Origin: Oscillospiraceae bacterium
GTDB taxonomy: Bacteria; Bacillota; Clostridia; Oscillospirales; Ruminococcaceae
Direction of reading: 5' to 3'
Assembly: GCA_029007985.1 (NCBI GenBank)
Contig: JAQXIW010000026.1
Span: forward strand, 560-64,559
Length of the DNA: 64,000 nt
Below, one piece after another: positions 1 through 49,529 of this stretch. Each line of letters opens with the position of its first letter. The first letter of the stretch is position 1. A program made the translations under genes and the position numbers. The notes under the pieces are model-generated. The model saw only the letters and a program-made list of their open reading frames with translations, was not told the DNA's origin and ran no database searches.

Positions 1-620
1 AATTAGAGTTATCTATTCTCTCTCTCCGTCTTGGATTACGCCAATACACCTCCCTCATCAGATGGAGGCCTGCGGCAATGTTTTCACTTTTGAAAGACAC
101 AAAGCCTACAAATCATTATATATACTGCTGGGACGAGACAGGGTTAATCCACTACATTGTATTGGTAAATCAGGCGAGGCTCCACTTGTCAGGGGAGCTG
201 TCGCTGAAAGCGACTGAGGGGTAGTCTAAAAATATAGCGTTACAATTATGATGTGTTTTTTCTCTCCCTCCGTCAAAAATCAGAGATTTTTGCCACCTCC
301 CTCATCAGATGGAGGCTTGCTGAAAATTCCCATATAATAAAGAATGAAGTTTGCTCTATCGGTGTTTTCTATCCCCACCGTCAAAAGTCTGCGACTTTTG
401 CCACCTCCCCTTTGTCTAAAAGGGGAGGCTTGCAGCAATGTTTTCACTTTCGAAAGACGCAAAGCCTACAAATCATTATATATACTACCGGGACGATATC
501 GGGCATAGTCCCCTACATTGTATTGGTAAATCAAGCAAGGCACCCCTTTATCTAAAAGGGGAGGCTTGCGCTAATTATTCTGCTATCAAAGAAATTACTT
601 ATACAAAATCTTCACCGAGA
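1..620. repeat. Repeat cluster A: X-type double-hairpin arms at 17-73, 259-320 and 368-433, a half module at 539-569, a Y-type arm at 173-226, and a ~110-bp internal direct repeat
   Basis: Repeated framework TCTCTCC(C)TCCGTC-[hairpin]-CCACCTC-[hairpin]-GGAGGCTTGC and its partner GCAAGGCTCC-loop-GGGGAGCTGTC-[hairpin]-GACTGAGGGGTAGTC. The same modules recur at 10.4-11.3 kb, 28.3-28.9 kb and 38.36-38.57 kb. Confidence 0.85.
173..320. repeat. Composite palindromic unit 1 (Y arm, ~33-bp AT-rich spacer, X arm)
   Basis: Starts GGCGAGGCTCC and ends GGAGGCTTGC. Y arm 173-226, X arm 259-320. Confidence 0.8.
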
Positions 621-719: not shown

Positions 720-1097
720 TCAGTCCTTCGAATTGCTTTGCCTTAACGATTCTTTTACAGCCAAGTCTATATATTCGCATACACCGAGAAAGTTTTTGAA
801 AATCTCATTGTTGGGAATGCGGATGACTTTCAGCCCGTATTGCCGTAAAAACTCGGTGCGACTTTCGTCTTTATTTATACCTTTGTCCTCATAGTGACCG
901 GAGCCGTCCAATTCTACAACAAGATTCGCCCGTGCACAGTAGAAGTCCGCTATATATCGTCCCAAGACTTTTTGCCTTAAAAACTTCACAGGGTAATCTC
1001 GTAAAAAACCATACCACAGGTGTCGCTCTTCTTTTGTCATATTTTTTCTCAGTTGTCTTGCAAAAGGGACAAGGCTTTTGTTGTGCTTTTTTTGCAT
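720..1097 (-). CDS. DUF559 / Vsr-like endonuclease-fold protein
   Basis: 125-aa ORF with ARQLRKNMTKEE..LW..LR, FLRQ, YIADFYC and VVELDGSGH blocks typical of the DUF559 family. Confidence 0.75.
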   Translation of the reverse strand: MQKKHNKSLVPFARQLRKNMTKEERHLWYGFLRDYPVKFLRQKVLGRYIADFYCARANLVVELDGSGHYEDKGINKDESRTEFLRQYGLKVIRIPNNEIFKNFLGVCEYIDLAVKESLRQSNSKD

Positions 1098-10384: not shown

Positions 10385-10596
10385 AAGAGGACAGCCGACG
10401 ATAAAGAATAAAATAGACTGTCTGCGCAGCAGACCGGGGGGTTGATTAGCACCGACCGAACCGACAGGAAGTTTTAACAAATAAACGGGTTAAATTTGGC
10501 CCCTTTTGGATAAAGTGGGCTGTCACAATGGAATCGTGACTGGGGGATTGAAAAACCGAGTAAAATAACTTCATTCTTTTGTTAATAATATTATTA

Positions 10597-10746
10597 GCAA
10601 GGCTCACCTTGTGAGGGGAGCTGTCGCTGAAAGCGACTGAGGGGTAGTCTAAAAATATTGTTAGGATAACATCACTATTTTCCGTTCTCTCTCTCCGTCA
10701 CGGCGTTCGCCGTGCCACCTCTCTCGTCAGAGAGAGGCTCACTTGC
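10597..10746. repeat. Composite palindromic unit 2 (Y arm 10597-10649, X arm 10685-10746)
   Basis: GCAAGGCTCACCTTGTGAGGGGAGCTGTCGCTGAAAGCGACTGAGGGGTAGTC ... TTCTCTCTCTCCGTCACGGCGTTCGCCGTGCCACCTCTCTCGTCAGAGAGAGGCTCACTTGC. Confidence 0.8.
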
Positions 10747-10812
10747 TCATTTGTTGAAATTCAAAAATCACCGACCGAGCCGGCAGGCGACTTTAATTGA
10801 AATAATTATTTA

Positions 10813-11019
10813 GCAAGGCTCACATTGTCAGGGGGTGCGGGTGTCCGGTGGACACCTTTGCGAAGCAAAAGCACCGACCGAGCCGACAGGCGAGACCCGG
10901 CGCTGAAAGCGACTGAGGGGTAGTCATTGTAATTAAACATTGTAATTATGATGTGTTTTTCTCTCCCTCCGTCAAAAATCAGAGATTTTTGCCACCTCCC
11001 TCATCAGATGGAGGCTTGC
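10813..11019. repeat. Composite palindromic unit 3, long form (Y arm carries a 65-bp insert at 10836-10900)
   Basis: Same termini as units 1 and 2. The insert TGCGGGTGTCCGGTGGACACC...CCGACCGAGCCGACAGGCGAGACCCGG is shared with unit 5. Confidence 0.8.
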
Positions 11020-11322
11020 CAAAATTCCTATTTAATAAAGAATGAAATTTGCTCTATCGGCGTTTTTCTATCCCCACCGTCACGGCAATTTTTCCGGCAT
11101 ACAAAAGACGAAAATATACAGCTCTTTATATAAGCGGTACGATGTCGGGCCGGTCCCTACAATGATAGACATAATATTTACGAAACCAATAAATAATTAC
11201 AAATTAAATTTAGTTCTCTCTGCGTCATGGCTTCGCCGTGCCGACTTTCTTATCACAGAGAAACTTTTACAAATTTCTTATCAGCAAAACGACTCCAATT
11301 AAATATCCAAAATTACATTATC

Positions 11323-15152: not shown

Positions 15153-15167
15153 GTAAAACCGTAATGT

Positions 15168-15255
15168 AACTTCCTACGGCGGCATTATCCGCATCAGGTA
15201 AAGGGTCGAAGTTGGATTACTTCCTCTCAGCCCGCCAAAACGAGCTCCCCTGTTT
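15168..15255 (-). promoter_or_regulatory. TPP (THI-box) riboswitch
   Basis: Minus strand reads GGGGAGC...GGCTGAGAGG...ACCCTTTACCTGATGCGGATAATGCCGCCGTAGGAAG. This carries the CUGAGA and ACCUGAU..GGAUAAUGCC..CGUAGGGAA consensus blocks. Confidence 0.9.
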
Positions 15256-15300
15256 TATGTATTTAATATACACCCTAATGCGATAAAATACAAGTCGTAA

Positions 15301-28289: not shown

Positions 28290-28940
28290 CGAATGTGCAA
28301 ATCACCGACCGAGCCGACAGGCGGTTTTGGCGTATAAGAAAGACAAACTTGGCCCCTTTTAGATAAAGGGGGCTGTCTGCGAAGCAGACTGGGGGATTGA
28401 AAACATCGACCAAATCGACTCTATTCTTTTGTTAATAATATTATTAAGCATGGCTCCACTTGTCAGGGGAGCTGTCACCGAAGGTGACTGAGGGGTAGTC
28501 TTTGTAAGTAATCATTGCAATTATGTTATGTTTTTTCTCTCCCTCCGTCAAAAATCATAGATTTTTGCCACCTCCCTCATCAGAGAGAGGCTTACTGAAA
28601 CAAATCTATATCAAAAGACGAAATTCTTTTTCTTTATCGTCTATCCCCACCGTCAAAAGTTTTCAACTTTTGCCACTGTCTCAACTGTCGGTGCTTCTGA
28701 ACATAAATGTTCGGAGGTCGCCTTCGGCGACCCACACCCCTTTGTATAAAAGGGGGAGACTTTCTTTAATAATTCTGCTTTCAAAAATACCGTAGGGGAC
28801 GATGCCCACATCGTCCCGCAAATTATTTACCGATAGAAATTATATAATAACTGTTTTGACAGCAAATTTGTTGTTATTCCGTTCTCTCTCCGTCTTGGCT
28901 TACGCAAATCCACCTCTCTCGTCAAAGAGTGGCTTGCGGC
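28290..28940. repeat. Repeat cluster C: W module, G-variant arm, composite unit 4, an X arm with an internal insertion, a Z hairpin and a solo X arm
   Basis: Modules at 28303-28323, 28349-28399, 28448-28595, 28640-28763, 28791-28820 and 28881-28937. Module order is colinear with cluster B. Confidence 0.85.
28448..28595. repeat. Composite palindromic unit 4 (Y arm 28448-28500, X arm 28535-28595)
   Basis: GCATGGCTCCACTTGTCAGGGGAGCTGTCACCGAAGGTGACTGAGGGGTAGTC ... TTCTCTCCCTCCGTCAAAAATCATAGATTTTTGCCACCTCCCTCATCAGAGAGAGGCTTAC. Confidence 0.8.
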
Positions 28941-29106
28941 ATTTTCATAAACAGACTTTTCGTCGTTGCTACTCTCCATATATGCAATTTTTACAGTTTT
29001 ATGCCGTGTTTTTGATTAAAACATAGAAAATGTTTTAGTTTGTTTACAGTTTTACCCGAATAATTTATAATATAATAAATTACTATGTAAAAAGGAGATT
29101 ACCGAT

Positions 29107-35213: not shown

Positions 35214-35383
35214 TTTAGAAAAAACAAAAAGCGGCGGTTAGCCGCTTTTTAATATTGCAATGAAAAATCGTATTTGTATAAATCTATAAGTAAATTTTGT
35301 ATCGCGCGATTAAGTCCGGTCGAAAATATTTGTCAATATACCTAACTTTAAGTTGTCAAACAAAATAAAAACGCAAACAAAAA

Positions 35384-35500
35384 GTCAGCACCGTCCTATT
35401 TTCCCGGGGCGTCGCCACCCAAGTATTTTCGGCGCTGCTCAGCTTAACTTCTGTGTTCGGCATGGGAACAGGTGGATCCTGAGCGCTATCGGCACTGACC
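35384..35500 (-). rRNA. rrf: 5S ribosomal RNA, stand-alone copy
   Basis: Minus strand reads GTCAGTGCCGATAGCG...CACCTGTTCCCATGCCGAACACAGAAGTTAAGC...AGCGCCGA...GGGAAAATAGGACGGTGCTGAC. Conserved 5S loop and helix blocks are present, and the terminal helix GTCAGTGCC/GGTGCTGAC closes. Confidence 0.9.
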
Positions 35501-38292: not shown

Positions 38293-38358
38293 TAATTTTT
38301 CAATAACATTTCAGTTGAGGCAGAGGATATATTTATTATGTTATGAGATAATTTTTTT

Positions 38359-38569
38359 GCAAGGCTCCACTTGTCAGGGGGTGCGGGTGTCCGGTGGACA
38401 CCTTTGCTGCAGGCAAAAGCGCCGACCGAGCCGACAGGCGAGACCCGGCAAAACGGAGTTTTGACTGAGGGGTAGTCTTTGAATAAAGGATATTATAGAT
38501 TGCTATATTTCGTTCTCTCTCTCCGTCACGGCTCTGCCGTGCCACCTCTCTCGTCAGAGAGAGGCTTGC
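38359..38569. repeat. Repeat cluster D = composite palindromic unit 5, long form (Y arm 38359-38477 with a 67-bp insert at 38382-38448; X arm 38513-38569)
   Basis: Near-identical framework to unit 3. The terminal hairpin is replaced by CAAAAC-GGA-GTTTTG. Confidence 0.85.
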
Positions 38570-38617
38570 ACAAGCGGCGCTACAATCAAAAGATAAATAT
38601 TATTATCAACTAATAAA

Positions 38618-38648
38618 GTCTCTGCCCCCGGGCAGAGATTTTTATTTT
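38618..38648 (+). terminator. Rho-independent terminator downstream of the rarA/NYN genes and repeat unit 5
   Basis: TCTCTGCC-CCCG-GGCAGAGA followed by TTTTTATTTT. Confidence 0.8.
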
Positions 38649-46712: not shown

Positions 46713-46748
46713 CATATTATGCTGTTTTAAGCAATTTGTAAACCCAAA

Positions 46749-47972
46749 TTACAGGATGTATTCCTTGAGTCTGCGGCACATTTCGTCGCAAGCTTCTGTA
46801 GGAATAGCCATGTTCATACGGATTGAGTTCGGAGCGTGGAACGGACGGCCGTCCTGCCAGATAACACCGTACTTAACACCCTTCTTCTGGAGCTCTTCAA
46901 TTGTCATGCCCTTTTCTTCGAGGTACTTGTCGAACTGAGCATAAATCATGAATGTGCCTTCCGGCTTAGCAACTTCAATGCCAGGAACAGATGTGAGTGT
47001 GTTGTAAACTTTTTCTGAGTTTTCTGTGATAGCTTCTTTGAATGATTTTACCCATTCATAGCCGTCTTCACCGGAGTATGCGCCGATCATAGCGTGCATC
47101 CAGAGAACGTTCATTGAGTTGTAGTGTGTCAATGAAGCTTCCTTGTTCCATCTGTCTCTCCAGTACTTGTTGTAGATGATACCGTAAGAACCTACGAAAC
47201 CTGCAAGGTTGAATGTCTTTGAAGGAGCATAGAAGGAAATTGTGTTCTGTTTTGCCCATTCGTTTGTAAGCTCAGGTGAGAGGTGTTTGTAACCAACATG
47301 GATACAGTCAGCCCAAATCTGGTCAGCGATAACTTTAACATCGTATTTCTCGAAGATAGCATAAGCTTTTTCGAGTTCTTCTTTTGTCCATACACGGCCA
47401 CATGGGTTGTGAGGAGTGCAGAATACTGTTACATGGATGTTGTTTTCAGCGATAACTTTTTCCATGTCTTCATAGTCCATTCTCCATGTACCGTTCTCGT
47501 CTTTCTTGAGCCAAGAGTGAACGATTTCGAAGCCCTGGTTCTTGAGGCAGTTTGTGAAGCCGATGTATGTCGGAGCGTGAAGAAGAACTTTGCAGCCCTT
47601 TTCACCGAAGATGTTCATAGCTGAGAGAACGCCGCCGAGGAGGCCGTTAGCGTAAACGATGTCTTCTTTCTTAACATCTGCGCCGTAGTTGTTCTTCTGC
47701 CATCTGATGATACCTTCAAAGTATTCATCTCTCGGTGCGAAGTAACCGAATGCAGGGTGATCGGCTCTCTTCTTGATAGCGTCTGTGATAGCAGGGCATG
47801 TCTTGAATGACTGGTCGGCAACCCATGTTGGGATGATGTAGTCTTTCCATTCAGGGTCTACTTCAGCGCCCGGAATCGGAATAACGTCAACAGCTCTTGC
47901 GTCCATACCGTGTCTTTCGTTGATGAAAGAAGCGTGCTGGAAAAGGTCATAATACTTGAGATTCTTGTCCAT
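46749..47972 (-). CDS. MalY/PatB family PLP-dependent C-S lyase / aminotransferase, paralog 1
   Basis: WVADQSF, HNPCGRVW and APSKTFNLAG (PLP lysine) blocks. Start set at the ATG after AAAAAGGAGAA. Confidence 0.9.
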   Translation of the reverse strand: MDKNLKYYDLFQHASFINERHGMDARAVDVIPIPGAEVDPEWKDYIIPTWVADQSFKTCPAITDAIKKRADHPAFGYFAPRDEYFEGIIRWQKNNYGADVKKEDIVYANGLLGGVLSAMNIFGEKGCKVLLHAPTYIGFTNCLKNQGFEIVHSWLKKDENGTWRMDYEDMEKVIAENNIHVTVFCTPHNPCGRVWTKEELEKAYAIFEKYDVKVIADQIWADCIHVGYKHLSPELTNEWAKQNTISFYAPSKTFNLAGFVGSYGIIYNKYWRDRWNKEASLTHYNSMNVLWMHAMIGAYSGEDGYEWVKSFKEAITENSEKVYNTLTSVPGIEVAKPEGTFMIYAQFDKYLEEKGMTIEELQKKGVKYGVIWQDGRPFHAPNSIRMNMAIPTEACDEMCRRLKEYIL

Positions 47973-48268: not shown

Positions 48269-48305
48269 AATGTTATTCGTCCGTGAGAATAACCAAAAAC
48301 TCAAA

Positions 48306-49529
48306 TTACAGGATGTATTCCTTGAGTCTGCGAGCCATTTCGTGGCAAGCTTCAACAGGGATAGCCATGTTCATACGGATTGAGTTCGGAGCGTGGAACG
48401 GACGGCCGTCCTGCCAGATAACACCGTACTTAACACCCTTCTTCTGGAGTTCTTCAATTGTCATGCCCTTTTCTTCGAGGTACTTGTCGAACTGAGCATA
48501 GATCATGAATGTGCCTTCAGGTTTAGAAACTTCAATGCCAGGGATAGATGTAAGAACATTGTAGATTTCTTCTGAGTTTTCTGTGATAGCTTCCTGGAAT
48601 GATTTTACCCATTCGTAGCCGTCTTCACCGGAGTATGCGCCGATCATAGCGTGCATCCAGAGAACGTTCATGTCGTTGAAGTGTGAGAGGGAAGCTTCCT
48701 TGTTCCATCTGTCTCTCCAATACTTGTTTCTGATGATACCGTAAGAACCTACGAAACCTGCAAGGTTGAATGTCTTAGAAGGAGCATAGAAGGAAATTGT
48801 GTTCTCTCTTGCCCAAGCGTTTGTGTTTTCAGGTGGGAGCTGCTTGTAGCCAACGTGGATGCAGTCAGCCCAGATCTGGTCACAAACTACCTTAACATCA
48901 TACTTTTCGAAGATAGCATAAGCCTTGTCGAGCTCTTCTTTTGTCCATACACGGCCGCATGGGTTGTGCGGAGCGCAGAATACTGTAGCATGGATGTTGT
49001 TTTCAGCGATAACTTTTTCCATGTCTTCGAAGTCCATTCTCCAAATGCCGTTTTCATCTTTCTTCAGCCAGGAGTGAACGATTTCGTAACCGTTGTTGTG
49101 GATACAGCCTGTGAAGCCGATGTATGTAGGAGCGTGGAGGAGAACCTTTGCGCCCTTTTCGCAGAATACGTTGAGAGCTGCGATAACGCCGCCGAGAAGA
49201 CCGTTAGCGTAAACGATGTCTTCCTGCTTTACATCTGAATCATACTGATTCTTCTGCCATCTGATGATGCCTTCATAGTATTCAGGTCTTGGAGCATAGT
49301 AACCGAATGCAGGGTGCTTTGCTCTGGCGATAACAGCGTCCTGAATAGCAGGGCATGTCTTAAATGACTGGTCAGCAACCCATGTAGGGATGATGTAGTC
49401 TTTCCATTCTTCGTCTACTTCTGCGTCAGGAATCGGGATTCTGTCAACAGCCATAGCGTCCATGCCGTGTCTTTCATTGATGAAAGAAGCGTGCTGGAAA
49501 AGATCATAGTACTTAAGATCCTTGTTCAT
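48306..49529 (-). CDS. MalY/PatB family PLP-dependent C-S lyase / aminotransferase, paralog 2
   Basis: Same motifs as paralog 1. The proteins are colinear and highly similar over their full length. Confidence 0.9.
   Translation of the reverse strand: MNKDLKYYDLFQHASFINERHGMDAMAVDRIPIPDAEVDEEWKDYIIPTWVADQSFKTCPAIQDAVIARAKHPAFGYYAPRPEYYEGIIRWQKNQYDSDVKQEDIVYANGLLGGVIAALNVFCEKGAKVLLHAPTYIGFTGCIHNNGYEIVHSWLKKDENGIWRMDFEDMEKVIAENNIHATVFCAPHNPCGRVWTKEELDKAYAIFEKYDVKVVCDQIWADCIHVGYKQLPPENTNAWARENTISFYAPSKTFNLAGFVGSYGIIRNKYWRDRWNKEASLSHFNDMNVLWMHAMIGAYSGEDGYEWVKSFQEAITENSEEIYNVLTSIPGIEVSKPEGTFMIYAQFDKYLEEKGMTIEELQKKGVKYGVIWQDGRPFHAPNSIRMNMAIPVEACHEMARRLKEYIL

Follow-up and report, generated by a model that had tools for sequence, protein, structure and literature searches.

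Known since the 1990s, BoxC/TMECO repeats have neither an established origin nor a partner. In E. coli and other Proteobacteria these sequences (BoxC/PIT/TMECO) are short, intergenic and present in high copy number, each combining a pyrimidine-purine hairpin with a mirror purine tract (class II), and the authors report having found no mobility gene associated with them (Holder et al. 2015, PMC4666352). Published triplex searches limit loops to 1-6 nt (ITxF) or 0-10 nt (Hoyne et al.) (PMC4666352). Among other extragenic palindromes, the REP/BIME/REPIN sequences are associated with the RAYT, an HUH Y1 transposase, and for the CGTC REPs a dedicated transposase is not known, according to the authors (Di Nocera et al. 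2013, PMC3733652).

Here we compare with these systems a family of repeat arms that occurs in a 64,000-nucleotide stretch of an Oscillospiraceae genome (contig JAQXIW010000026.1; hereafter the window) and at many other loci. We propose, with a probability of about 0.6, that a single explanation covers the family: a triplex-type module forms the ends of a DUF559 nuclease cassette, and the nuclease would act on the folded arms. Neither the family nor a link between nuclease and repeat was found described in the literature searched (exact repeat strings; Clostridia/Bifidobacterium MITEs; DUF559, PF04480 and ycjD).

One Module in Two Orientations

The X and Y arms are one module of ~55 nt, M, in two orientations, Y being close to the reverse complement of X. 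M consists, in order, of a pyrimidine tract (F), a variable hairpin (hp2), one A and a second hairpin (hp1: pyrimidine strand, loop, purine strand). The window arms lie in four intergenic clusters in a single orientation (1-600, 10400-11300, 28290-28950 and 38340-38570), and the features discussed below are these:

17-73, plus strand: X arm (M sense), with F CTCTCTCC at 20-27, hp2 at 28-47 (TTGG/CCAA) and hp1 at 49-68 (CCTCCCTC-ATCA-GATGGAGG)
174-226, minus strand: Y arm (M on the minus strand), with plus-strand hp1 at 179-198, hp2 at 200-214 (GTCGC-TGAAA-GCGAC) and purine third tract TGAGGGGT at 215-222
259-320, plus strand: X arm, with F CTCCCTCC at 264-271, hp2 at 272-294 (CAAAAATC-AGA-GATTTTTG) and hp1 at 296-315
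368-433, plus strand: X' arm of subfamily B, with F TATCCCCACC at 370-379, hp2 at 380-402 (CAAAAGTC/GACTTTTG) and hp1 at 404-428 (CCTCCCCTTT-GTCTA-AAAGGGGAGG)
534-569, no strand assigned: lone B-type hp1 (CCCCTTT-ATCTA-AAAGGGG) with GCAAGGC and GCTTGC on its flanks
720-1097, minus strand: DUF559 (PF04480) gene, 125 aa, ~150 nt from cluster 1
10411-11268, no strand assigned: cluster 2, with arms of types A and B
10411-10445 and 10496-10552, minus strand: Y'(B) arms of cluster 2
10597-10649, minus strand: Y arm of cluster 2
10685-10746, plus strand: X arm of cluster 2
10812-10925, minus strand: long Y_L arm of cluster 2
10958-11019, plus strand: X arm of cluster 2
11066-11100 (X') and 11210-11268 (X), plus strand: decayed arms of cluster 2
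28296-28941, no strand assigned: cluster 3
28349-28399 (Y'(B)) and 28448-28500 (Y), minus strand: arms of cluster 3
28535-28595 and 28883-28941, plus strand: X arms of cluster 3
28640-28760, plus strand: interrupted X'(B) arm of cluster 3
38294-38612, no strand assigned: cluster 4, with a Y_L arm at 38359-38477 (minus strand) and an X arm at 38513-38569 (plus strand)

The arms at 174-226 and 259-320 make up one gene-less Y-X dimer, and in cluster 2 the type-B arms enclose nested type-A dimers. The arm at 17-73, which joins an F of the CTCTCTCC class to an hp1 of the CCTCCCTC class and has two mismatched triplet positions, looks recombinant from these mixed classes. Several window arms have mismatches in hp1. 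The pattern CTCCGTC-N10-25-CCACCTC occurs 6 times in the window against 0.00 expected, and GACTGAGGGGTAGTC occurs 5 times against 0.04 expected, its spacing to CCGTC being 43-45 nt in 5/5 copies. No relevant tandem repeats were found in the window. A hammerhead, considered for CTGATGAG on the X-arm reverse strand, was rejected: these letters are the loop of hp1, and Rfam concurs.

Pairing Is Kept While the Hairpins Change

The original prediction held that an internal hairpin differs between copies yet remains self-complementary, and all the stems and positions that it listed are present in the window. Folding resolves each window arm into two local hairpins, the conserved hp1 and an hp2 that changes its stem but keeps it Watson-Crick paired. 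Among 96 distinct copies from outside the window there are 77 distinct hp2 sequences with at least 42 stems, and 5.45 anchored pairs are found versus 1.84 after shuffling, with only 3 G.T pairs; an independent sample of 165 copies, picked by hp1 alone, contains 118 distinct hp2 sequences. When 36 copies with a 15-nt hp2 are taken together with the window copy at 261-319 (37 copies), 98.5% of cells pair, versus 86.6% when shuffled and ~45% when slid, double-change cells number 69 versus 19.8 in shuffled sets (0/500 shuffles), and wobble pairs occupy 3 of 518 cells (~0.6%). Compensated variation had also been claimed for hp1, and it is evident in the pair columns of that hairpin (UA/CG 28:9, UA/CG 25:11 and CG/UA 24:12). 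The strong covariation in both hairpins bears out the core of the prediction, that selection acts on structure and not on sequence, and upholds its argument that copying followed by decay is inadequate to explain the pattern.

The base of the hp2 stem is conserved (G-N-C...G-A-C) and its top is variable, and ~60% of the hp2 loops are GAA, GCA, GTA or GGA when read on the purine-motif strand. CCGTC stands 5' of hp2 in X-type arms and CAGTC in Y-type arms, GTAG is found only 3' of Y arms, and some window copies form stem-sharing subfamilies (for example, CAAAAATC in 3 copies). The hp2 of X arms resembles the CGTC REPs in its CGTC, 7-9-bp stem, 3-5-nt loop and CCA tail, and head-to-head dimers predominate in both families. 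However, the CGTC REPs are single hairpins with stems conserved within a family, and they have been reported from Alphaproteobacteria, Neisseria and others, not from Firmicutes/Actinobacteria (PMC3733652). In Y-type arms, AGTC and CAG take the place of CGTC and CCA.

A Mirror Tract Covaries with hp1 in a Triplex-Type Register

The hairpins had been placed in a constant framework; this framework is itself structured in a way that was missed: the tract F, 5' of hp2, mirrors the purine strand of hp1, and the two covary in one parallel register only. The opposite strand of M therefore reads Py-loop-Pu-[hp2]-Pu(mirror). Class II intrastrand triplexes of the purine motif, among them E. coli BoxC/TMECO, are arranged in this way, with a 3-nt loop in the position of hp2. 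In the first sample, 29 haplotypes follow the purine-motif rules at 7.48 of 8 positions, versus 5.88 when permuted (0/5000 permutations) and 6.48 of 8 under the pyrimidine-motif rules, and the parallel (mirror) register scores 0.81, whereas no direct or antiparallel register exceeds 0.72. The association of F with hp1 persists within strata of the hp1-selected independent sample, where Fisher tests at positions 1, 2, 6 and 8 give p values of 7e-37, 7e-37, 7e-15 and 2e-39, from a pattern scan that held four of the eight purine positions fixed and with the qualification that these values overstate independence because the copies share descent.

The mutual-information matrix has F8-R8 (0.80), F6-R6 (0.28) and F1/2-R1/2 (~0.75) on its diagonal versus at most 0.07 on its anti-diagonal, the parallel columns are UA25/CG12 and UA27/CG8, and an additional class combines CTCCTTCC with GAGGAAGG in a Klebsiella plasmid. 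In the arm at 368-433, 10/10 triplets on the opposite strand obey G.GC, A.AT and T.AT, and the fold has z = -4.9. Because the tracts are of low complexity, alternative Watson-Crick pairings of 5-7 bp between F and hp1 exist as well. Positions 1 and 8 are non-canonical for the pyrimidine motif, the T.CG reading of position 8 following the triplex literature.

M shares with BoxC/TMECO a Py-Pu hairpin and a third tract on one strand, the triplet rules G.GC, A.AT and T.AT, and a tie to between-strain instability of the loci. The two differ in their loops: loop 1 of the arms measures 4-6 nt, and a hairpin of 11-42 nt takes the place of the 3-nt loop 2 of BoxC/TMECO. Existing triplex finders would miss the arm family because they allow only short loops. 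The arms have no sequence similarity to BoxC/TMECO, and the TMECO consensus CCCTCNCCC-N3-6-GGGNGAGGG-N3-GGGNGAGGG has 0 matches in the window and 1 in the E. coli positive control; the hosts of BoxC/TMECO are Proteobacteria, whereas the arms are found in Clostridia and Bifidobacterium, as inverted dimers. From this pattern we infer that the arms may fold into intrastrand triplexes, in which hp2 would replace the short second loop of the motif, and this would explain why only the pairing of hp2 matters. Three features suggest a module that acts as DNA and not as RNA: its very few G.T pairs, its agreement with purine-motif rules and its GNA triloops.

Inverted Arms Flank a Nuclease Cassette

Elsewhere the arms stand, in inverted orientation, at the two ends of a ~450-nt cassette, the predicted product of which is a ~120-aa DUF559 nuclease (Vsr-like PD-(D/E)XK). 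The DUF559 gene lies exactly between the arms at L127, L149, L177, L226, L236 and L243, and its signals are part of them: the purine tract of the left arm, GGAGGGAG, is a Shine-Dalgarno sequence ~5 nt upstream of the ATG or GTG, and the F tract and hp2 of the right arm hold the last codons and the stop of the open reading frame, the stop lying in hp2. The NLSLSQ C-terminus encoded by F is present in 33/33 homologues, and N-extended gene calls include the translated left arm. At L149 a gene-less copy lies beside the cassette; its right arm has an hp2 identical to that of the cassette, and in its left arm hp2 differs by a compensated change. The window arm at 259-320 is nearly identical to the reverse-complemented left arm of the cassettes at L226, L236 and L243. 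The Y-X units of the window have the anatomy of gene-less, MITE- or REPIN-like derivatives of the cassette.

The DUF559 gene of the window has its own arms decayed or absent. Its protein matches the Pfam family at E = 5.5e-28 (97.5 bits versus a curated cut-off of 20.6) and PDB 3HRL at E = 2e-11, and the gene is 55-58% identical to the arm-flanked cassette genes. PF04480 is the precomputed Pfam match for 120/120 of the homologues listed, and the cassette protein has at least 7,995 relatives at E <= 1e-10. In E. coli K-12 the DUF559 gene ycjD has a pyrimidine tract at its end and a TMECO 168 nt downstream, at a single locus; the 3' segment of ycjD is single-copy and only the BoxC part is multi-copy, with a median of 13 places per genome. 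DUF559 genes are 14-fold enriched among predicted inversion targets, that is, genes overlapped by inverted repeats (PMC9881135).

The likeness to REP/BIME elements that had been suggested is apt. Both are short extragenic palindromes, mostly in inverted head-to-head dimers (among close dimers of the arms, 68 HH, 15 TT and 11 HT, with the arms 0-54 nt apart) and in mosaic clusters downstream of genes, and both have a single small gene between inverted copies of the same repeat. The gene, however, is not the one anticipated: at the loci examined no RAYT, IS200/IS605 TnpA or integron integrase turned up as a partner and no HUH Y1 transposase gene flanked by arms was found, whereas the gene between the arms encodes a DUF559/Vsr-like nuclease. 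The arms also differ from REPs in having two hairpins and a mirror tract, and they seem to lack a conserved 5' GTAG tag. The far-spaced dimers inspected have no transposase between or beside their arms, and the distant Y...X pairs of L184 and L178, tried as carriers of a partner gene, enclose ordinary genes or spurious ORFs.

With MITEs the family has in common gene-less internal-deletion derivatives that share their ends with a coding parent, strain polymorphism and nested insertions, but the parent here encodes only a ~120-aa nuclease without known transposase chemistry. We know of no strand-transfer chemistry for a 120-aa PD-(D/E)XK nuclease, nor of homing endonuclease genes with structured inverted arms or gene-less repeat dimers. 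Genes of free-standing or intron-borne homing endonucleases with a Vsr-like catalytic domain (I-Bth0305I; PDB 3R3P, cited in PMC3424549) resemble the cassette gene in that they are small and selfish, belong to the Vsr/DUF559 clade and are inserted between host genes. Neither a clean empty site nor a target-site duplication was found for any cassette examined. The ABC-PfkB slot was rejected as an empty site, as related strains have different genes there, which indicates replacement and not insertion.

Copy Number, Distribution and Strain Polymorphism

Gene-less arms far outnumber nuclease genes: the window has ~20 arms and a single, arm-less DUF559 gene, and across 1.7 Mb of loci 375 arms were counted but only 6 genes. 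They occur at many unrelated loci and nested in each other, and also in Bifidobacterium, IMG/VR viral contigs and Klebsiella plasmids. Arms lie within open frames of 150 or more codons at 0.42, versus 0.85 for random windows, in what is a blunt test given that the loci are GC-rich and full of spurious frames. Frames such as LPLSGELS..TEG* account for spurious ORFs; a coding explanation of the cross-phylum conservation was rejected because frames of this type leave the covariation unexplained.

Cluster 4 is a 319-nt block that a strain of 97.5% identity lacks. In the window this block separates the stop codon of an NYN gene from the terminator of that gene (38615-38642), and given this place it is probably transcribed. 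Its junction reads TAAT...TAAT in the window versus TTAT in the empty site, and a search for target-site duplications gave nothing consistent at the cassettes or at the copies in the MAG JAZPZR. In that genome a ~230-bp unit with extra outer inverted repeats, TTCAAATTGYRGTTT, is present in 15 or more nearly identical copies, and given these repeats the unit could be mobilised by another transposase. Exact-protein look-ups with the window genes returned nothing, or short contigs of the same strain that break at the repeats.

Alternative Explanations

The arms could be ordinary MITE/REP inverted repeats moved by a conventional transposase, with hp2 a neutral filler kept by templated (quasi-palindrome) mutation and subfamily amplification, DUF559 a passenger and the mirror tract without a structural role. 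We regard this as unlikely. It would fit the outer inverted repeats of the JAZPZR unit, the partial grouping of window copies into hp2-sharing subfamilies and the insertion/deletion polymorphism of one cluster between strains, and near-wobble-free perfect stems are the expected product of template switching; however, replication-based mechanisms yield inverted or direct repeats and not mirror repeats, which leaves the parallel F-R covariation unexplained, the inspected far-spaced dimers hold no such transposase gene, and, unlike what is expected of a passenger gene, DUF559 has its reading frame and ribosome-binding site physically merged with the arms in all the cassettes examined, as also in 33/33 homologues. 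Somewhat less probable still is that the arms are expression signals of DUF559, the left one sequestering the ribosome-binding site and the right one acting as a 3' stabiliser or terminator, with gene-less dimers as deletion scars, nothing mobile, and the covariation reflecting alternative mRNA pairings. The Shine-Dalgarno sequence and the stop codon are indeed placed in the arms, F can pair with the hp1 purine strand over 5-7 Watson-Crick bp in every class (shifts -3 and +1), and the gene-less dimer of L149 directly adjoins a cassette. Against this stand the great excess of gene-less arms over genes, their nesting and their spread over unrelated loci, Bifidobacterium, viral contigs and plasmids, the covariation of positions 6 and 8 in a parallel and not an antiparallel register, and the near absence of wobble pairs.

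That M works as a structured RNA (3'-UTR element or small RNA), with selection acting on the transcript, we consider improbable. The position of cluster 4 between stop codon and terminator and the folds of some arms, which beat shuffled sequence with z down to -4.9, speak for it, but the rarity of wobble pairs speaks against it, and Rfam contains no matching family, either at gathering scores with the whole window or at E <= 10 with cluster 2, where the matches are at chance level. Purine-motif triplexes are absent from RNA, although pyrimidine-motif triplexes are possible there (PMC4666352), and it is the DNA-only purine motif that fits the arms better. Furthermore, the motif occurs once per strand in each unit, and the preferred loops read GNA on a strand that, in half of the arms, would be the antisense one. 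The least credible of the alternatives, to which we attach hardly any weight, is that the arms are attC-like or other folded sites of a tyrosine recombinase. In hp2, as in integron attC sites, a folded stem with a conserved base ends in a variable structure, but the likeness that had been drawn fails on anatomy: the aligned arms, as read, have no R''/L''...L'/R' boxes (RYYYAAC/GTTRRRY), the closely spaced inverted dimers do not form cassette-spaced arrays beside an intI, strand specificity is lacking, and there is no integrase among the 10 cluster-flanking proteins scanned or between far-spaced arms.

Proposed Mechanism and Significance

In the explanation that we prefer, with a triplex-type module at the ends of a nuclease cassette, a single-stranded arm would fold into a hairpin plus third strand, hp2 folding back compactly and bringing the third strand to hp1. 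Because hp2 would need only to fold back compactly, its sequence could drift freely while pairing and a stable GNA loop are retained. The nuclease would nick or cut the folded arms, and the unit would then be copied or moved by host repair or replication, a process that may also destabilise the loci. On this view the mobility of the unit would be driven by the nuclease. A wider proposal is tentative, and we hold it to be rather doubtful in its full extent: DUF559 nucleases might be the missing partner of triplex- and hairpin-type extragenic repeats across bacteria, namely the Clostridia/Bifidobacterium family, the enterobacterial BoxC/TMECO repeats and perhaps the CGTC REPs. Together they would then represent a new class of selfish elements: a ~120-aa Vsr-like nuclease would recognise folded triplex-plus-hairpin DNA at the inverted ends of its own unit, and would rely on host repair or replication to spread both itself and the gene-less derivatives.

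On a practical level, gut-metagenome assemblies break at the arms, which also give rise to small spurious ORFs (...PPSDEGGG..., ...NLSLSQ...), and a triplex finder that permits a hairpin as loop 2 would find more examples. For DUF559, a very large family without an assigned function, the link to the arms supplies a hypothesis, and the BoxC/TMECO repeats gain in the DUF559 nuclease a candidate partner. Together, the physical link between nuclease and arms and the three-strand covariation amount to a concrete, testable hypothesis for both orphans and, if it is true, would provide rare natural comparative evidence for the selection of intramolecular DNA triplexes in bacteria.

Organization of the Arms in the Window

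The repeat arms are modules of about 55 nt made up of a pyrimidine tract (F), a variable but always paired second hairpin (hp2) and a conserved pyrimidine/purine hairpin (hp1) with purine strand R. X arms carry the module on the plus strand and Y arms, which are imperfect reverse complements of X arms, on the minus strand. All stems listed in the original prediction are present in the window, and each arm gives two local hairpins on folding. The arms lie in four clusters, all intergenic and in one common orientation, and the framework motif is far more frequent than expected by chance in this stretch of a Bacillota genome (GC content about 45%), whose closest relatives are uncultured Oscillospiraceae and Clostridia.

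Features of the window
1-600: arm cluster 1
10400-11300: arm cluster 2
28290-28950: arm cluster 3
38340-38570: arm cluster 4
10450-10470, 10762-10798, 10865-10901, 28296-28332, 38413-38449: sites of the ~68-nt insert of long arms
140-170, 490-520, 11138-11165, 28795-28830: hairpin repeat unrelated to the arms
61-68, 192-198, 308-315, 10610-10620: arms with G-to-T changes in hp1
720-1097 (−): DUF559 gene adjoining cluster 1
15154-15261 (−): TPP riboswitch, above the Rfam gathering score
22469-22708 (+): T-box leader, above the Rfam gathering score
34506-34578 (+): tRNA gene, ~800 nt from the 5S rRNA gene
35383-35499 (−): lone 5S rRNA gene
46740-47039 and 48297-48596: 300-nt direct repeat, 91% identical, shared by two neighboring class I/II aminotransferase paralogs in the end of each gene that encodes the N terminus

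In 5 of 5 window copies, 43-45 nt separate GACTGAGGGGTAGTC from CCGTC, and this constancy, together with the inverse complementarity of Y and X, indicates that the basic unit is a Y-spacer-X inverted dimer of about 150 nt. Arms of subfamily B, in which hp1 reads CCCCTTT…AAAGGGG, flank dimers of type A, and the clusters are thus nested mosaics.

Several further observations concern the same clusters. Several genomes have a long variant of the arm, in which hp1 and hp2 are separated by an insert of ~68 nt with two extra hairpins, GTGTCC-NNN-GGACAC and one that varies, as well as the conserved string CACCGACCGAGCCGACAGGCG; outside the window this insert occurs at L045, L047, L049, L052, L056 and L059, and fragments of it are also found on their own. 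Another hairpin repeat, unrelated to the arms, is interspersed with them; it reads GGGACGA…TCGTCCC, or GTAGGGGCGACC…GGTCGCCCGC, and then CCCTACAAT, and is also present at L004, L039 and L044. The hp1 purine strand shows recurrent G-to-T changes (AGTGGAGC, GATGGAGG, GGTGGAGG and AGGTGAGC), at several other loci as well, without compensation on the opposite strand; its G run could be a mutational hotspot. A thiamine-related operon follows the TPP element and extends as far as the TenA gene adjoining cluster 2. The 64-kb window contains no 16S or 23S gene.

Covariation within the Hairpins

Collection scans with a Y-arm 15-mer or Y–X patterns as query placed the arm framework in numerous Oscillospirales MAGs of human, pig and ruminant gut origin, and also in several Bifidobacterium species and IMG/VR viral contigs. 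With an nhmmer profile built from the module (X arms as is, Y arms reverse-complemented), 96 distinct copies were obtained, among which there are 77 versions of hp2 with 42 or more different stems; anchored pairing of hp2 averaged 5.45 bp, compared with 1.84 bp when the interiors were shuffled. Pairs were counted in 37 copies (window 261-319 and 36 copies whose hp2 measures 15 nt), in which 98.5% of hp2 cells are paired, versus 86.6% after shuffling and about 45% with slid partners. Double-change cells number 69 versus 19.8 in shuffled copies, a count reached in 0 of 500 shuffles. These data confirm the original prediction that hp2 changes in sequence while its pairing is kept; neither a few clonal subfamilies lacking supported covariation nor frequent disruption of the hairpins was found. 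Covariation is present in hp1 too.

Arms as Probable Ends of DUF559 Cassettes

Three far-spaced Y…X pairs in loci from other genomes or contigs (L127, L149 and L177) enclose about 345 nt, in each case with an open reading frame for a DUF559 (PF04480) protein. By tblastn, 1.7 Mb of fetched loci contain six distinct DUF559 genes, the window's own among them, and all lie 0-400 nt from arms. Three more of these ~450-nt cassettes, each between different housekeeping genes, have both arms (3/3), and their left arms, once reverse-complemented, are almost the same in sequence as the window X arms that have the CAAAAATC stem.

Arm and gene are closely interlocked. In gene orientation, the left arm reads GCCTCCCTC-TGAT-GAGGGAGG-TG-hp2-GAC-GGAGGGAG-AGA, then ATG or GTG, and the third-strand tract thus also serves as the Shine-Dalgarno sequence; two gene calls with an N-terminal extension include the left arm in their translation. 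In the right arm, the F tract and hp2 form the last codons, AAT CTC TCC CTC AGT CAG …TGA. With the L127 protein as query, at least 7,995 relatives were retrieved; the best 120 are ~80% identical, have a length of ~122 aa and come mostly from short contigs. The C-terminal …NLSLSQ followed by a variable tail was seen in all 33 homologs inspected.

At L149, a gene-less dimer adjoins the cassette, with the same right-arm hp2 and a left-arm hp2 that differs by one compensated pair. The Y–X units thus have the anatomy of internally deleted cassette derivatives, in which they resemble MITEs or REPINs. Head-to-head dimers dominate (68, versus 15 tail-to-tail and 11 head-to-tail). We propose, with a probability of roughly 0.8, that the arms are the ends of DUF559 cassettes and the Y–X units their gene-less derivatives.

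A Mirror Tract Consistent with a Triplex

The 8-nt tract F is, across subfamilies, the mirror image of the hp1 pyrimidine strand or, equivalently, a Hoogsteen-type partner of R in parallel reading.

Co-varying F tracts and hp1 purine strands (R)
F CTCCCTCC, R GAGGGAGG
F CTCTCTCC, R GAGAGAGG
F CCCCTC, R GGGGAG
F CTCCCCC, R GAGGGGG
F TCCCTCC, R AAGGGAGG
CTCCTTCC with GAGGAAGG: further co-varying class, in one of the two arms at L265 1500-1670 (plasmid pKP13f)

Among 29 haplotypes, a single parallel F–R register matches at 0.81, versus at most 0.72 for direct-repeat or antiparallel registers, and permuting F among haplotypes never attained the observed score. On the opposite strand, 7.48 of 8 positions fit purine-motif rules (G.GC, A.AT and T.AT, plus T opposite a C-G inversion), under which the A-opposite-A positions are no longer exceptions, as they are in the pyrimidine reading. 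As an independent test, viral and metagenome contigs were scanned with a degenerate pattern on hp1 only, giving 196 unique matches, 165 with a recognizable hp2. In these 165 copies the tract 5′ of hp2 follows R at each of the four positions that vary (Fisher p = 7e-37, 7e-37, 7e-15 and 2e-39), and the association is kept within strata. The mutual-information matrix is diagonal (F8–R8 0.80, F6–R6 0.28 and F1/2–R1/2 ~0.75 bits; anti-diagonal at most 0.07), and pair counting in parallel columns gives UA25/CG12 and UA27/CG8.

Because replication-based mutation cannot make mirror repeats, this pattern requires selection, and the sole established meaning of a mirror tract beside a pyrimidine/purine hairpin is, to our knowledge, an intramolecular triplex. 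By the classes set out for BoxC/TMECO, an intrastrand triplex repeat of Escherichia coli (PMC4666352), one strand of the arms has the class II order (Py–Pu–Pu) and its complement that of class IV. F abuts hp2 directly and a single A separates hp2 from hp1, a geometry in which hp2 stands where TMECO has its 3-nt second loop. As a triplex connector, hp2 would be irrelevant in sequence yet required to fold on itself, which would explain why it is variable but paired. Triplex formation by the arms is predicted from their sequence, and we lean toward tracing the mirror covariation to selection on a triplex-type fold in which hp2 serves as the connector.

We favor the view that the arms act as single-stranded DNA, specifically as the purine-motif strand. 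Wobble pairs are rare (about 0.6% of cells in the 37-copy count, with just three G.T pairs in hp2 of the 96 nhmmer copies), and the motif occurs once per strand in each dimer. On the purine-motif strand, hp2 loops are GAA, GCA, GTA or GGA closed by C-G in about 60% of cases, which we take to be hyperstable DNA mini-hairpins of the d(GCGNAGC) type. RNA forms no purine-motif triplexes (PMC4666352), and no Rfam family matches the arms.

Comparison with Known Systems

BoxC/TMECO is the closest known system, sharing with the arms its three-tract logic and triplet rules but not its sequence, host taxa or type of loop 2. In published triplex searches the loop length was capped at 6 or 10 nt (PMC4666352), so that the arm family would have been missed. 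No mobility genes were reported near the motif by the TMECO authors (PMC4666352). In E. coli K-12 (NC_000913.3 1351000-1351900; L225 3500-4400), ycjD, the only gene annotated DUF559 in the 5-kb stretch examined, ends in the pyrimidine tract …TCA CCC TCT CCC TGA and is followed by a decayed copy of its own 3′ end; a full BoxC/TMECO motif lies 168 nt downstream of ycjD, between it and fabI. The BoxC part alone is multi-copy (median 13 places per genome), and the E. coli link is one locus. A long hairpin overlaps the ycjD start codon.

Functionally, REP/REPIN–RAYT is the closest analogy to arms and cassette, with a different enzyme class. CGTC-tagged REPs resemble the X-arm hp2 (CGTC, stem, loop and CCA tail) and are said to be without a transposase (PMC3733652). 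Identity with attC sites does not fit the arms. Among predicted inversion targets, DUF559 genes are 14-fold enriched, that is, inverted repeats overlap their coding sequence (PMC9881135), an independent hint of an association between DUF559 and inverted repeats. In the searchable literature, coverage of which is incomplete, we found no earlier description of the arm family or of a DUF559-repeat link.

Possible Mobility and Spread

A 97.5% identical pig-gut contig lacks exactly window 38294-38612, the whole of cluster 4, which separates a stop codon from its terminator; at the junction, the window has TAAT…TAAT and the empty site TTAT. MAG JAZPZR has at least 15 near-identical copies, most at contig ends, of a MITE-like unit of ~230 bp in which outer inverted repeats TTCAAATTGYRGTTT…AAACYRCAATTTGAA surround one Y–X dimer (L029-L070, e.g., L031 7480-7720, L035 and L065). 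Positions within the outer repeats differ between otherwise identical copies. The intergenic slot between ABC transporter and PfkB kinase genes (L226/L245/L255) is a replacement hotspot, occupied in related gut strains by a DUF559 cassette, a NUDIX gene or a 315-aa gene without Pfam match; no clean empty site for a cassette was found there.

The cassette protein is a PD-(D/E)XK nuclease of ~120 aa, kin to Vsr and PDB 3HRL. Since we know of no strand-transfer chemistry for such a nuclease, the most plausible route would be homing-like: the enzyme would nick or cut, and host repair or replication would copy the element. We tentatively propose that the arms are the target of this nuclease and spread through its action.

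Two arms lie beside sul2 in the Klebsiella pneumoniae plasmid pKP13f (NZ_CP004000.1; L265 1500-1670), in a segment with rsmH and tgt genes, and the same arms occur in seven other Klebsiella/Enterobacter conjugative plasmids. The repeat family has thus reached enterobacterial resistance plasmids.
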